A DNA stretch of 64,000 bases from Escherichia phage Ec_Makalu_003: sequence record MN882349.1. One strand, given 5' to 3'. The translations under genes were made by a program, and so were the position numbers. The stretch's first letter is position 1; each line of letters starts with the position of its first letter. Below are positions 891 through 11,661 of this stretch, piece by piece. The notes beneath the pieces were generated by a model that made no database searches, was not told where the DNA came from, and saw only the letters and a list, made by a program, of their open reading frames with translations.

Positions 891-2690
891 ATGCTAATGT
901 TTAATAACTCCGTTAAATGGTTTACCGGAATTGTGGAAAATAGGGAAGACCCGTTAATGTTAGGCCGAGTTCAGGTCAGGATTCATGGTATACATCCTTC
1001 GCTATCCGCACACGGTGACATTCAAGGTCTTCCAACCGAAGATCTATTATGGATTACGCCAGTACAAGATATTACAAGCGCGGCGATCTCCGGTATAGGT
1101 CAAAGCCCTACTGGTATTGTTGAAGGTTCAATGGTATTTGGTTTGGCCTTAGATGAACGTTATTTAAACTGCGTTATTCTGGGTACTATTGCCGGACAAT
1201 ATACAGAGAAACCACTCACTACAGAAGGTTTTTGCGACCCTTCTGGTGCATACCCGCGCTATATTGGTAATGATGTTAATATTCTTGCCCGTGGCGGTAT
1301 TAACCCAGAAACCGGACAAACAACAAAACCTGATAGTGTCTATATTCGAGATGAAAACACTGGAGTTGCAGTAAATCCAGACGACGAGCCATTAGATCAA
1401 ATTCCGGTTGATGATAATCCTGATTTTACAATAGAAAAAATGCTGCGGGGAGATGAGGGATATCGCGAGAAATGGTATCTTGATTCAGAAGGATACCCGA
1501 CAATAGGCATCGGGCATTTGATCATTTATAAGAAAACCAGTGATCTGGGTATTATCAATAATGAACTTTCTAAGCTGGTAGGGCGTGAAGTTACAAACGG
1601 AAGACTTACCGCCGAAGAAGTTAGTAAGGTATTTGCTGACGATATAGAAAAAACTCGTCGTGATATGCGCAAACATCCACGAATTGCACCTGTCTATAAT
1701 AAATGTAATGCTTCTCGTCGTATGGCATTAGAAAATATGGCGTTTCAAATGGGTGTTGGTGGATTGGGTAAATTTAAGAATAGTCTTGCTGCGATGTTAG
1801 CGGAAGAATGGAAACAAGCCTATGATGGATTACGTCAATCAGTATGGGCTAATCAAACTCCGGGACGCTCCAGCCGTGTTTCTAAAATTATTCTTACTGG
1901 CAACTTAGAATCCTATGGCGTAATTGCTCCTAAGAAAGAGGAATCTGTTTCCGATGATCCGCGAGCACGTTTGAGAAATGCCCGTATTGCTGCCTATAAG
2001 ACGCAGAGAGCAGAAGAAGACCCAGAAGCACCGTTTACCCCACAAGACACACGAATCATGTTTAAAGAGCCTAAGAGTTCGTATTCTGCAAGGTATCCAT
2101 ATAACCATGTGTACGAATCAGAGAGCGGTCATATTATCGAGATTGATGATACTCCTTCTCATGAGCGTTATCATCGCAAACATCCTTCTGGTACATTTGA
2201 AGAAACCAGACCGGACGGAACGAGGGTAGAAAAGATTGAAGGCGATGATTATTTGATCGTTAAGCAAGGCCGCAAAGTCAACGTTAAGGGAAATCTGCAA
2301 GTTGTTGTTGAAGGTGACGCGCAAGTTTATTATATGGGTAATGTGATGCAAACCGTTGATGGTAACGTCACTGAATTTATTCGTGGTAATGTTAATCAAA
2401 CCGTTGAAGGTACAGCTAATATGCATGTTGTAGGTGATGTTACCGCACAACTTGACGCTAATTTGACGGCTAACGTCAAGGGTAATGCTGAATTAATGAT
2501 CGAGGGTAACACTACCGAGACAATTAAAGGAAACTATGATTTAACCGTTGAAGGTAATTTTAATATGACCGTCAATGGCACTAAATCAGATCAGGTTAAT
2601 GGTGACTGGTCCCGTAATTGTGGTGCAAGCGTTAAAGATATTGCATCGGGTACAGTTAAAATTGATGGTAGCCGTATTGATCTTGGGTGA
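891..2690 (+). CDS. 5: baseplate hub subunit and tail lysozyme gp5
   Basis: 599 aa; N-terminal NNSVKWFTGIVEN like T4 gp5; central lysozyme segment (YLDSEGYPTIGIGHLI); C-terminal VxGxxxxx beta-helix repeats (VKGNLQVVVEGDAQV...). Confidence 0.9.
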   Translation: MLMFNNSVKWFTGIVENREDPLMLGRVQVRIHGIHPSLSAHGDIQGLPTEDLLWITPVQDITSAAISGIGQSPTGIVEGSMVFGLALDERYLNCVILGTIAGQYTEKPLTTEGFCDPSGAYPRYIGNDVNILARGGINPETGQTTKPDSVYIRDENTGVAVNPDDEPLDQIPVDDNPDFTIEKMLRGDEGYREKWYLDSEGYPTIGIGHLIIYKKTSDLGIINNELSKLVGREVTNGRLTAEEVSKVFADDIEKTRRDMRKHPRIAPVYNKCNASRRMALENMAFQMGVGGLGKFKNSLAAMLAEEWKQAYDGLRQSVWANQTPGRSSRVSKIILTGNLESYGVIAPKKEESVSDDPRARLRNARIAAYKTQRAEEDPEAPFTPQDTRIMFKEPKSSYSARYPYNHVYESESGHIIEIDDTPSHERYHRKHPSGTFEETRPDGTRVEKIEGDDYLIVKQGRKVNVKGNLQVVVEGDAQVYYMGNVMQTVDGNVTEFIRGNVNQTVEGTANMHVVGDVTAQLDANLTANVKGNAELMIEGNTTETIKGNYDLTVEGNFNMTVNGTKSDQVNGDWSRNCGASVKDIASGTVKIDGSRIDLG

Positions 2691-2698
2691 GGTAATTG

Positions 2699-3268
2699 AT
2701 GGTTGAAATTCTTCCTATGAGTTCAAAATTGGAGGATATCAGCGAGCGAGAAATCTTTGAGGTGGTGTTCTCTTATAAGGCAACGCCACCTGATGAAAAT
2801 ACCACATACACGATTAAAGAGTTTAAGATCAGCGAGTATCGCCCTAATAAGGGCGTTACCGTTGAAGAAACTAAAATATCTGGTGAGTATCGGGATAGTT
2901 TTTCGCTTGGCGCGGATTCTCTTAAATATATAACGAAAGATCGAATTAAAAAATCTGCCGGAAGTTTTGATGATTTACCAGATCCAACTACAGCAGATCT
3001 ATATTATTTTAACGCTCCTACACGTCTACAGGAGGTTTATACTTATAAAGTAACCCTAACCTATATCCAATCTGTTTCAGAGTCTTCTGGTGGTTCAGGT
3101 GAAGGAAATAGTGGTGGTTCTAACAGTCGAGAGGGTGCTGGTGAAACTAATCCGCCTCCGGTAGTAACCGAACACACAATAGAGAAAGTTTATACTCAAA
3201 CTGTTTTTGGAAATTGGGATGTGTGGAGTAAACAGTTAAGAGATTATGTTAGAAGAAGTGAGGGATAA
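2699..3268 (+). CDS. hypothetical protein at the T4 gene 5.1 position
   Basis: ATG at 2699 with SD TGAGGT; track ORF begins at an in-frame TTG 2696. Gly/Ser-rich C-terminal segment; no recognisable domain. Confidence 0.6.
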   Translation: MVEILPMSSKLEDISEREIFEVVFSYKATPPDENTTYTIKEFKISEYRPNKGVTVEETKISGEYRDSFSLGADSLKYITKDRIKKSAGSFDDLPDPTTADLYYFNAPTRLQEVYTYKVTLTYIQSVSESSGGSGEGNSGGSNSREGAGETNPPPVVTEHTIEKVYTQTVFGNWDVWSKQLRDYVRRSEG

Positions 3269-3269
3269 T

Positions 3270-3809
3270 ATGATTGAAGTAATTCATTACACCAAAGAAG
3301 ATGAAATTTTATATAATAGACTACATGAACTATTTTATGAAGTTGATGGAAAGGTTTATAGAAGGTTCTCTCGTGGGCGTTCTAAAGCAGGAAGTCTAGT
3401 TGGTGGATTGAAGATAAATCCGTGTGGATATAGATATTGGAGACTTGCTGTTGATGGTAAAGAGTTTCAGAGGTCTCATGTTGTTTATCATATGCATCAC
3501 GGACACACTCCAAGAAAACCACTACAAATAGATCATATTAACACAAACTCCCTTGACGACCGAGTTAGCAATTTAAGACCAGCAACCGTTACTCAACAAA
3601 TGTACAACCAAAATAAACAATCCGATTGCACATCTTCATATATTGGTGTTAATTGGAATAAAAACTCCAAAAAATGGGAAGCTAGAATTAGAGTTAATGG
3701 AAAACGAATCCGTTTAGGTCTATTTGATAATGAAATTGACGCTGCGATTGCCTATAACACCGCTGCATTATCTAGAGATTCAAAAGTTAACAAATTAAAC
3801 GATGTATGA
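3270..3809 (+). CDS. HNH homing endonuclease with AP2-type DNA-binding domain
   Basis: HNH segment HMHHGHTPRKPLQIDHINTNSLDDRVSNLRP; AP2-like YIGVNWNKNSKKWEARIRVNGKRIRLGLFDNEIDAAIAYN. Start 3270 chosen (SD GAGGGA); in-frame ATG 3246 also possible. Free-standing between 5.1 and 5.4. Confidence 0.75.
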   Translation: MIEVIHYTKEDEILYNRLHELFYEVDGKVYRRFSRGRSKAGSLVGGLKINPCGYRYWRLAVDGKEFQRSHVVYHMHHGHTPRKPLQIDHINTNSLDDRVSNLRPATVTQQMYNQNKQSDCTSSYIGVNWNKNSKKWEARIRVNGKRIRLGLFDNEIDAAIAYNTAALSRDSKVNKLNDV

Positions 3810-3824
3810 ATATGGGGGTGTTTA

Positions 3825-4118
3825 ATGGCTGGATTATCCTACGATAAAGCTAAAACTACAGGGCACGGAAACTACCCACCTACGGTAATTAATGCAACTC
3901 AATCTAAGGTATTTGTTGAGGGTATCCCTGTATTAGTCGAAGGAGACCCAATTACACCACATACAAAAACAACAAAACCTTATGATACACACGGGGGAAC
4001 TACGGTCGCCAGTACCCCGAAAGTATTTGTTACCGGAAAGAAAGCAATTCAAATGGCAGATCGTATTAGCTGTGGCGATACCGTCGCTATGGCATCACCG
4101 AAGGTATTCATAAAATGA
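3825..4118 (+). CDS. 5.4: PAAR-repeat baseplate spike tip protein gp5.4
   Basis: 97 aa, same size as T4 gp5.4; PAAR-like segments ([27 protein letters not shown]); directly precedes gene 6. Confidence 0.75.
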
Positions 4119-6019
4119 CAAAGCAAAAGATTACACAAATTCCTGATATTTTTAATGCTGCTACATTCGATGAAATTAAAAGCGCATTAACCGACTGGAT
4201 GAGAAACCAGGAAGAATTTAAAGATTTTGATTTTAATGGTGCTGGTATTAACGTATTGATGGACTTGCTCGCATATAACACTCTGTATATTCAGCAATTC
4301 GCCAACGCCGCGCTATATGAATCTTTTATCAGAACGGCAATTAAGCGTAGTTCAGTTGTTCAAGCCGCGCAAGATTTAGGATATTTGCCAGCGAGTAAAA
4401 CTAGTGCATCGACTACAATTATGTTGCATGTTTCCCATCCACGAAATCCGGCAAGTATTCGAATCCCACGAGGGACTAAATTTATTGCAAGTGTGGATCG
4501 CCAGACTTCTTACCCATTTGTTACTACAGAAGACGTTGTGAGCGTTTTAGGTTCAAATGGTTTATATACGCCTATGCTTAAAGTCGCACAAGGTCGTATT
4601 GTTCGTACAGAAATGTTATTTGATCCGAAGAAACAAATTCTGATCCGTGACCCTGATATTGACCGCGCTCAGGTTAAATTGTGGGTGGACGGTGCTGAAT
4701 GGAAAGACTGGACACGAGAAAGTATTGTTAATGCAACTGGCGCAAGCAATATTTTCTATATGCGTGAAACCGTAGACGGACATACAGAAATTTTCTTTGG
4801 TGAAGGTGAATCAACCTTATCTGCGGCTGGCGGGGCGCTGGAAGCAAATTATATTGGTGGACTTAAGCCGTCAACTGGCGCTAATATTGTTATCGAATAT
4901 ATCAGCACTAAGGGCGCGGAAGCAAACGGTTCAGTTAATTTCACATACGCGGATACCCTTGCATCTATCTCTATTGTTAAAATTATTGAGAATCCGACAA
5001 ATGATCGTGATTATGTCGGTGCAGATGGTGGTGGTGATCCTGAATCAATCGAACGTATCCGTGAACTTGCTCCGGTAATGCGTGAATCTCAGCGTCGTTG
5101 TGTAACTGCTTCCGACTACGAGGCTTTTGTTTCTAGCCGTTTTGGTAGTATTGTTCAGGCGGTACAATGTTTCACCGACCGAGAGAAACCGGGTTATGCT
5201 TTTGTTGCTGTTAAGCCTAAATCTGGATTGCGCTTGACAACTGTTCAAAAAGAAGATATGCGCGATTATCTGGCAAAATATAATCTTGCCCCTATCACAC
5301 CGAGCATCATTGACCCTAACTATCTGTATATTAAACAGAATATTAAAGTTTCCTATTCAATCAACGACTTGTCAGAATCAGAGCAGTGGTTGCGTGGTGC
5401 GGTCATTGATCAGATTGATGCATATTACACCGACGAAGTGGAAATTTTTAACCAGACCTTTAGTAAGTCTAAAATGCTTGCGCGCATCGACAAAGCTGAT
5501 GTATCTGTGATAGGTTCTAGTGCAGAAATCGAGATGGTGCGAGAGATCGACAACTTCTATAAAGCACCGATGGCTGGAATCAAGTTTTTAAACCAGTATA
5601 AGAGCGGAATCAAGTCTAGTTCATTCAACTTCGAAAAGGACGACAAGCAATATCCGATCCATTATGTAAGTACAGAAATGAACAAAGAATCCGGTTTAGC
5701 TAAATTGCTGGTTGGACCTTTCCCTGTTGGTTCTGCAATCGCTTTACCGCACTATTCCGGCACTGATTTTGATAAAGAGGTTATCGACGGTGCGGACCTA
5801 TACTTTGAGGTTGGAGAGGTTCAGCATTATGACGACCTTATTTCATGGGATCTGGGTAAACTGAATATCAATAGCGATCGCTTTACTGGTTCATATATTG
5901 AGTTGACAGCTAAACCGATTGCTGATAACATCTTTACTAAAGACGGTTCTTTGATCGTGTTTGAAAACGATCTCCGTCCTCAGTACACAACTATTAGTCT
6001 GGAGGCAATTGCTCAATGA
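4115..6019 (+). CDS. 6: baseplate wedge subunit gp6
   Basis: 634 aa (T4 gp6 660 aa); start overlaps gene 5.4 stop; gene order. Confidence 0.85.
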
Positions 6020-11653: not shown

Positions 11654-11661
11654 TATAAATA
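11654..11661 (+). promoter_or_regulatory. T4-type late promoter TATAAATA upstream of gene 9
   Basis: Exact TATAAATA 28 nt upstream of the gene 9 ATG. Confidence 0.6.

Follow-up and report, generated by a model that had tools for sequence, protein, structure and literature searches.

The open reading frame (ORF) at positions 3270-3809 is probably a free-standing HNH-AP2 homing endonuclease gene, carried as a minimal, promoterless cassette of 560 bp in a T4-type phage of the genus Krischvirus (RB49-like). The gene, referred to hereafter as HEG-A, was studied in a stretch of 64,000 nucleotides from Escherichia phage Ec_Makalu_003 (MN882349.1), the whole of which is called the window. Within the baseplate operon, HEG-A is a mobile passenger with no structural role and not a baseplate component. 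An earlier note on this DNA had interpreted it as a mobile homing-type insertion, and this view is supported by the HNH-AP2 architecture, by a precise 560-bp polymorphism and by the uncoupling of the gene from its flanking haplotypes, with a presumed cleavage activity and a presumed target site.

Gene context

A segment of 2.3 kb around the gene is matched by 59 phage records at 96.7-98.7% identity, all from Escherichia or Shigella Krischviruses. In the window, a gp53-like ORF (325-879) and gp5 (891-2690; Gp5_OB, lysozyme and Gp5_C) are followed by a 5.1 homologue (2696-3268; PHROG 1168), HEG-A on the plus strand, the PAAR gene 5.4 (3825-4118) and gp6 (from 4115), which confirms the two neighbours previously named for the gene, 5.1 and the PAAR gene. 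HEG-A comprises 540 nt and encodes 179 aa, supported by Pfam, PHROG, an AlphaFold2 model and Foldseek. It begins with an ATG at 3270-3272, ends with a TGA at 3807-3809 and is preceded by a Shine-Dalgarno (SD) sequence, GAGG (3260-3263), located 6 nt upstream of the start; the same start codon is used in the GenBank annotation of phages MIZ4, KFS-EC, G37-3 and G5211. The 5.1 stop codon (TAA, 3266-3268) and the HEG-A ATG are separated by a single base, and the overlap with the end of 5.1 asserted in the earlier note has to be abandoned, as it arises only for the mechanical ORF drawn from an in-frame ATG upstream, at 3246. That statement may have been meant for T4 segC, which overlaps 5.1 by 20 nt.

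The description of the gene as free-standing holds, with an SD of its own, an ATG placed between the 5.1 stop and the 5.4 start, and no Rfam intron family around it. Regarding a group I intron or another structured RNA, a search of 2600-4300 against Rfam (E ≤ 1) returned only a meaningless snoRNA match at 0.76. HNH proteins can also have a terminase-associated role, as occurs in HK97-like phages; for HEG-A such a role is ruled out by the baseplate-operon context, the polymorphism of the locus and the AP2 architecture. A repeated family in the window is likewise ruled out, since a tblastn search of the 64 kb with the HEG-A protein matched its own gene alone and thus revealed no paralogues there.

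Domain architecture and fold

The combination of an HNH nuclease motif with an AP2 domain at 3270-3809 is borne out by the ORF call, Pfam, PHROG and the structural model. Pfam HNH_3 covers residues 70-111 (37.1 bits, cut-off 24.8, E 2.4e-9), and the HNH (beta-beta-alpha-metal) nuclease core as a whole, delimited by HNH_3 and by a profile alignment with the nuclease I-HmuI, corresponds to residues 68-113 (3471-3608, plus strand). Pfam AP2 covers residues 123-168 with a score of 32.9 bits (E 8e-8), just below its cut-off of 33.3. The marginal score is backed by matches of the protein to solved plant AP2 domains and by a confidently modelled fold. The single sequence matches the solved plant AP2 protein WRI1 at E 2.9e-6 and a family profile built from 23 homologues does so at 2.7e-17, and the PDB sequence matches to the domain are WRI1, ERF1 and TEM1. 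Together with Pfam and Foldseek, these matches place the AP2 DNA-binding domain at residues of about 121-168 (3630-3773, plus strand).

The AlphaFold2 model of HEG-A has a mean pLDDT of 92.1. Two strands (86-89 and 102-105) and a helix (107-112) give its HNH part the beta-beta-alpha-metal fold, and its AP2 part consists of a sheet of three strands (127-130, 135-142 and 145-152) against which a C-terminal helix (155-168) is packed. The best folds found by Foldseek in the PDB are AP2 domains (7et5, 7wq5 and 1gcc; TEM1, WRI1 and AtERF1) and I-HmuI; the model superposes on 1gcc (AtERF1) with a TM of 0.76 and an rmsd of 2.1 Å over 61 columns, and on I-HmuI (1u3e) with a probability of 1.00 and an rmsd of 3.8 Å over 89 columns. 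HEG-A also matches PHROG 99, annotated as HNH endonuclease, at E 7.6e-46, and belongs to a very large family of 25,682 cluster representatives at E ≤ 1e-10. That the frame could be a chance or mis-annotated one with no protein product, a reading for which nothing but the AT-rich context speaks, is refuted by its two independent domains, the strength of the PHROG match, the number of homologues, the confidence of the model and the excess of synonymous changes described below. With an HNH domain followed by an AP2 domain in one polypeptide encoded by a mobile ORF, the 179-aa protein has the defining features of the HNH-AP2 class.

Catalytic residues

The family profile aligns with I-HmuI without gaps through the HNH motif. 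In this alignment, D74-H75 of I-HmuI corresponds to D88-H89 of HEG-A, N87 to N101, N96 to Q110 and N99 to N113. In I-HmuI, D74-H75 is the general-base histidine with its preceding aspartate, N87 is a structural asparagine and N96 is the metal ligand. Among 93 relatives in which the HNH region could be aligned, D88 is kept in all 93, H89 and N101 each in 92, and R103 and N113 each in 89. Position 110 is an asparagine in 84/93 of them and a glutamine, as in HEG-A, in six; the Krischvirus paralogues examined all keep the asparagine. Two further departures are seen in HEG-A, namely an aspartate at position 97 (shared by 3/93), where asparagine is near-invariant (85/93), and the residues SH at the place of a conserved upstream HR motif.

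The loss of HNH catalytic residues had been named in the earlier note as an observation that would count against a homing endonuclease. The Asp-His pair and the structural asparagine are intact and one ligand position is occupied by glutamine. By residue conservation, the HNH core is largely intact and Gln110 is a conservative minority substitution. The same T-x-x-Q-Q variant is found in at least four other clusters at 50% identity (P0019, P0021, P0046 and P0168) with otherwise intact motifs; this recurrence in otherwise intact lineages points to tolerance rather than decay, and Gln110 is probably tolerated in what is predicted to be a nuclease.

An alternative, judged unlikely, is that HEG-A descends from a homing endonuclease, has since been attenuated or inactivated and is kept as a site-specific DNA-binding protein or nickase, e.g., as a regulator or competitor-exclusion factor, and that its spread no longer depends on double-strand cleavage of its own. 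The three substitutions, i.e., glutamine for the ligand asparagine, Asp97 for a near-invariant asparagine and SH for HR, are in line with such a history, and I-HmuI, the closest solved HNH relative, is reportedly a nicking enzyme. Purifying selection on the gene, documented below, would fit a DNA-binding role equally well, and AP2 domains do work without a nuclease in the phage DNA-binding CasPRs (bioRxiv 10.64898/2026.02.23.707548). However, D88-H89, N101, R103 and N113 are all retained, glutamine bears the same carboxamide as asparagine and recurs in the four or more otherwise intact clusters, and the presence or absence of the gene together with its uncoupling from the flanking haplotypes fits ongoing mobility.

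The inserted cassette and the empty site

The comparison of the 5.1-5.4 junction with that of relatives lacking the gene, suggested in the earlier note, resolves into a precise 560-bp indel and gives the insertion point to the base. Alignments of filled and empty alleles (2301 vs 1741 bp) delimit an inserted cassette at 3250-3809 on the plus strand, composed of a 20-nt leader and the ORF. Homology to the empty site stops after GATTATGT (3242-3249), 17 nt before the end of gene 5.1, and picks up again at 3810. In the empty allele, AGAGATTATGT is directly followed by ACATAGGGGTGTTTAATGGCTGG and the 5.1 stop overlaps the 5.4 start codon (TAATG). The leader, TAGAAGAAGTGAGGGATAAT (3250-3269, plus strand; read directly against RB49 and Makalu_002), changes the C-terminus of the 5.1 product from VHRGV* to VRRSEG* and brings in both the new stop codon and the SD of HEG-A. 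Downstream of the cassette, the end of the original 5.1/5.4 junction, ATATGGGGGTGTTTAATGG (3810-3828, plus strand), is retained with the SD and ATG of 5.4.

The eight empty alleles sampled are identical over 3237-3847. All eight have C at 3811 and A at 3814, where all carriers have T or G and G, respectively. The insert has a short repeat, GAT(G)TATG, at its left (3242-3249) and right (3801-3808) ends. The composition of the insert is foreign, with a GC content of 34.8% vs 40.8% for the window. Among relatives from IMG/VR, 5.1 abuts 5.4 in 10/10, including members of other genera with 68-73% gp5.4 identity, which indicates that the empty state is ancestral.

Distribution, exchange between backbones and selection

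HEG-A is present in six of the 59 related records, which represent five phages (MIZ4, MIZ5, G37-3, G5211 and KFS-EC), and the remaining records align in two pieces with the 560 bp absent. The locus is thus polymorphic and the gene is not fixed, fixation being the other finding that had been held to contradict homing; with six records only, the gene is not sweeping either.

Fourteen alleles were aligned, their SNPs were tabulated and differences from the window were counted by segment. In the right flank (3890-4700), Makalu_002 differs from the window at 0/811 positions and the four other carriers at 20-27/811; in gene 5.1 (2696-3240), the corresponding figures are 7/545 and 14-15/545. Makalu_002 thus shares the flank haplotype of the window, yet it has no endonuclease gene at 5.1/5.4. 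HEG-A itself differs from the other copies at 9/540 positions. The window-specific or Makalu-type SNPs nearest to the insert are those at 3202 to its left and at 3884 to its right. Since the flank haplotypes are incongruent with the presence of the gene and such SNPs lie close to the insert, phage backbones must have exchanged the element or its absence, the breakpoints lying within about 50 bp (left) and about 75 bp (right) of the insert. This is the pattern that homing with short co-conversion tracts would leave, and ordinary recombination is also possible: recombination is so frequent in T4-type phages that the gene could have become uncoupled from its flanks without the help of an endonuclease.

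All five sequenced copies of HEG-A are intact. The variable sites comprise nine synonymous changes for about 113 synonymous sites and five non-synonymous changes for about 424 sites, i.e., a dN/dS (omega) of about 0.15 (Fisher p = 5e-4), a value that rests on small numbers. The intact copies and the synonymous excess indicate purifying selection, which argues for a functional protein.

These data bear on a further explanation, considered very unlikely, according to which HEG-A is a passive passenger that entered once by illegitimate recombination and owes its patchy distribution to ordinary homologous recombination or replacement among co-infecting Krischviruses instead of homing. Such an origin would be compatible with the terminal repeat, which could have provided microhomology, with the low frequency of the gene and with the highly recombinogenic nature of T4-type phages, for which the modular shuffling of small cassettes has been described between phi1 and RB49 (PMC2839356). 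Against it, the ORF is intact in all copies and under purifying selection, which is unexpected for a functionless passenger, the breakpoints are only tens of bp from the insert on both sides, and two further nuclease genes, a second HNH gene of Krischvirus and T4 segC, have invaded the same junction independently. Repeated invasion of this kind is typical of endonucleases that target a conserved sequence.

Expression

The nearest T4-type late promoter motif upstream of HEG-A is TATAAATA at 285-292 on the plus strand, from which a polycistronic transcript that includes HEG-A presumably starts, and the next one after it is at 11654. On the plus strand between 2700 and 3825, no promoter- or terminator-like site stands out. 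The possibility that the cassette has a promoter or terminator of its own was accordingly rejected, as no convincing sigma-70-like, late-promoter or terminator site lies inside or beside it. Since the only late motif lies upstream at 285-292 and nothing resembling a promoter or terminator surrounds the cassette, HEG-A looks like a promoterless gene carried on the late baseplate transcript. The T4 genes segC, segF, segG and mobE have likewise been described as promoterless cassettes (PMC2988022).

Folding of 3225-3300 predicts an RNA hairpin at 3242-3275 (plus strand; arms 3242-3251 and 3266-3275), in which the HEG-A start codon is held in the stem and the SD is exposed in a loop of 14 nt. The fold has an energy of -12.3 kcal/mol (z = -3.2), and one of 200 shuffled sequences folded as well; the other copies carry exactly this sequence, which therefore offers no variation from which covariation could be scored. 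The fold of the 5.4 initiation region (3780-3850) is no better than shuffled sequences (z = +0.8). The model suggests that the hairpin, opened by the ribosome terminating on 5.1, may restrict HEG-A to a low level of coupled translation.

Other nuclease genes at the same junction

A second HNH_3 ORF, termed here HEG-B, occupies the 5.1/5.4 junction in seven records from six phages, namely Whisky, GEC-3S (two records), Skers, G2494, JEP8 and W115. It encodes 246 aa, belongs to PHROG 99 and is 32% identical to HEG-A; in GEC-3S it is annotated as a putative HNH homing endonuclease. Its insertion point, after TAATGGC, is located about 19 bp downstream of that of HEG-A. In common with HEG-A, it has the PHROG 99/HNH_3 assignment, the same junction and a cassette whose 3' end re-creates the SD and ATG of 5.4. 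It differs from HEG-A in that its AP2-like repeats are degenerate and stay under the Pfam threshold, it has its own GC-rich hairpin and a motif resembling a late promoter upstream, its insertion does not alter the 5.1 terminus, and it always occurs together with a recoded patch in 5.4. A third gene, a 184-aa HNH-AP2 ORF with 42% identity, is found between 5.4 and 6 in Whisky only. In T4, the GIY-YIG gene segC lies directly after 5.1 and before 5.3/5.4. Nuclease genes have thus settled at the junction before the PAAR gene on at least three independent occasions.

The recoded patch covers codons 3-21 of 5.4, where 16/63 nt differ, vs 2/231 nt in the rest of the gene; the changes amount to 12 synonymous codons together with P18G and V21I. 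In the phage collection, the patch is confined to the carriers of HEG-B and to KFS-EC, which combines it with HEG-A, a combination that implies recombination or replacement between the HEG-A and HEG-B cassettes. A donor for the patch was absent from the 10 IMG/VR relatives and from T4 (17-30 differences over 66 nt). Taken together, these observations can tentatively be read as a contested landing site ahead of 5.4, the essential gene for the PAAR spike tip, for which HEG-A, HEG-B and T4 segC compete as unrelated selfish nucleases. The 5.4 patch would then be a HEG-B-linked allele of cleavage immunity or co-conversion, KFS-EC would record the displacement of one endonuclease gene by another, and Gln110 would reflect a tuned, i.e., nickase-like or attenuated, and not a decaying enzyme. 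This is a possible but doubtful synthesis.

Proposed mechanism

For the HNH-AP2 homing endonuclease considered probable here, the following cycle can be proposed. From the motifs present, the gene would be transcribed late with the baseplate operon, from the promoter at 285. Translation would be low and coupled to termination of 5.1, the ribosome that stops at 3266-3268 opening the hairpin around the ATG at 3270. Within the protein, the N-terminal region, similar to that of I-HmuI, and the HNH core would cut, while the C-terminal AP2 domain would recognise the sequence; the two-domain architecture is observed, and the roles are assigned by analogy with the structures of I-HmuI and of plant AP2-DNA complexes. 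When the carrier and an endonuclease-less relative infect the same cell, the enzyme would nick or cut at or near the intact 5.1/5.4 junction, and recombination-dependent repair would copy the cassette from the carrier genome. A population signature of this step is present in the precise indel and in the uncoupling of the gene from the flanking haplotypes. The neighbours are kept working, as the cassette provides 5.1 with a new terminus and leaves the SD and ATG of 5.4 intact. The carrier allele would be immune, since the insertion splits the presumed site and two adjacent bases differ.

In the searchable literature, no report of cleavage by HEG-A or any close relative was found. The free-standing endonucleases of T4 often cut hundreds of bp away from their own gene (PMC2988022), and for this reason the 5.1/5.4 junction may not be the target itself.

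With regards to its significance, the analysis settles the annotation of the HEG-A ORF and indicates that the insertion alters the last residues of gp5.1. The junction is a naturally occurring example of convergence, with several selfish nucleases at a single site beside an essential gene, and the filled, empty and recoded alleles all exist in sequenced, culturable phages, which makes target mapping, immunity and competition testable in crosses. If the specificity of its AP2 domain were mapped, the 179-aa protein would represent a compact HNH-AP2 nuclease. Current understanding is not overturned, the element being of an ordinary kind.

Comparison with known systems

A literature search on Krischvirus homing endonucleases, on this locus and on the biochemistry of phage HNH-AP2 proteins found no paper, and near-identical copies of HEG-A are already annotated as HNH endonuclease in GenBank and RefSeq. 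HNH-AP2 proteins as such form a recognised category of putative homing endonuclease genes in T4-related phages (PMC2993671 Table 5; PMC1524935). One such gene is counted in RB49, two in JSE, three in RB43 and six in RB16 (Petrov et al., 2010, PMC2993671 Table 5), and RB49ORF040c is listed as AP2 plus HNH by Nolan et al. (2006, PMC1524935), who cite Magnani et al. (2004). HEG-A is a member of this known class, located at a site from which the class had not been described before. Paralogues at other Krischvirus loci are small, free-standing, two-domain ORFs like HEG-A, in the same genus and with 38-43% amino acid identity to it. They lie at nrdA/nrdB in G2494, beside the helicase-loader gene in E26 and Makalu_002 and beside dam in GEC-3S, and they differ from HEG-A by these locations and, in those examined, by an asparagine instead of a glutamine at the ligand position.

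Among solved nucleases, the closest is the HNH homing endonuclease I-HmuI from the Bacillus phage SPO1 (PDB 1u3e), matched by the family profile at E 7e-10. The match spans the N-terminal sheet and the HNH core of HEG-A, with the D-H and N motifs aligned without gaps. The two proteins differ at the metal ligand, Asn96 in I-HmuI and Gln110 in HEG-A. I-HmuI is also intron-encoded, and its C-terminal DNA-binding region is helical, of the helix-turn-helix type and not AP2.

The Mob proteins of T4, such as MobE, are HNH enzymes that resemble HEG-A in being free-standing and promoterless, with translation coupled to the upstream gene and a location between essential genes (PMC2988022); an AP2 domain is not reported for them, and the likeness drawn here is one of description. 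By position, the nearest counterpart is T4 SegC, whose gene occupies the equivalent place after 5.1, is promoterless, relies on an upstream late transcript and has its translation linked to 5.1 (PMC2988022). SegC differs from HEG-A in that it is a GIY-YIG and not an HNH enzyme, is devoid of an AP2 domain, overlaps 5.1 and has a demonstrated activity, being listed as active with 5.1/5.3 as its insertion site (Edgell et al., PMC2988022 Table 1).

Additional endonuclease genes at and near the 5.1/5.4 junction

The junction between genes 5.1 and 5.4 that carries the window's HNH-AP2 endonuclease gene is also filled by a distinct 246-aa HNH_3 gene in Whisky, GEC-3S, Skers, G2494, JEP8, and W115. 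In phage Whisky (MZ504878), this gene is located at 1386-2191, is assigned to PHROG 99 and shares 32% identity with the window-type gene. Its insertion point, after TAATGGC, lies ~19 bp downstream of that used in the window, and the region upstream of it in Whisky has a GC-rich hairpin (GGCGGGCGGG...CCCCGCC) as well as a late-promoter-like CATAAATAG. A further HNH-AP2 endonuclease gene, encoding 184 aa, is inserted between 5.4 and gene 6 of the same phage (2489-3043); it exhibits 42% identity to the window's HNH-AP2 and, within the phage collection, is found in Whisky only.

Recoded and mosaic flanks

Codons 3-21 of 5.4 (2930-2986 in KFS-EC and 2197-2253 in Whisky, corresponding to window 3831-3887) form a recoded patch with sharp edges, where 16 of 63 nt differ as against 2 of 231 in the remainder of the gene, the changes being mostly synonymous. 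Within the collection, the patch is limited to phages with the 246-aa HNH gene and to KFS-EC, the latter having the patch but harboring the window-type gene in place of the 246-aa one. The patch may represent an allele for immunity or one left by co-conversion; comparison with the 10 IMG/VR relatives and T4 revealed no lineage as its donor. Regarding the backbone of the window's phage, its 5.4-6 segment (3890-4700) shows 0 differences over 811 positions with Ec_Makalu_002, a phage from Nepal without the endonuclease gene, and no record of the collection matches the window over the whole locus. The window's phage is a mosaic absent from the collection.

Endonuclease start and neighboring genes

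An RNA hairpin is predicted at window 3242-3275 (z = -3.2), with the SD in its loop, the endonuclease start codon in its stem, and a 5' arm crossing the insertion junction. Such a structure may act as a translational throttle, lifted by ribosomes terminating on 5.1. The 5.1 homologue, a gene without a Pfam family, contains a low-complexity Gly/Ser-rich stretch at 3080-3160 (SESSGGSGEGNSGGSNSREGAGETNPPP). With regard to annotation, the RefSeq 5.4 of KFS-EC (NC_055757, 2903-3217) begins at an upstream start overlapping the endonuclease gene, which is probably wrong because the conserved ATGGCTGG start is present at 2924. Gene 6 is a single 1905-nt gene in all relatives, unlike in G37-3 (MK327941, 3216-5118), whose annotation splits it into two ORFs that overlap (3216-4865 and 4828-5118), owing to a frameshift or else to an error in sequencing.

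Comparison with T4

In T4 (NC_000866), the position equivalent to that of the window-type gene is occupied by segC (4197-4619), a GIY-YIG homing endonuclease gene placed directly after 5.1, which it overlaps by 20 nt, and ahead of 5.3/5.4. The same junction is colonized in different genera by nuclease families unrelated to each other.
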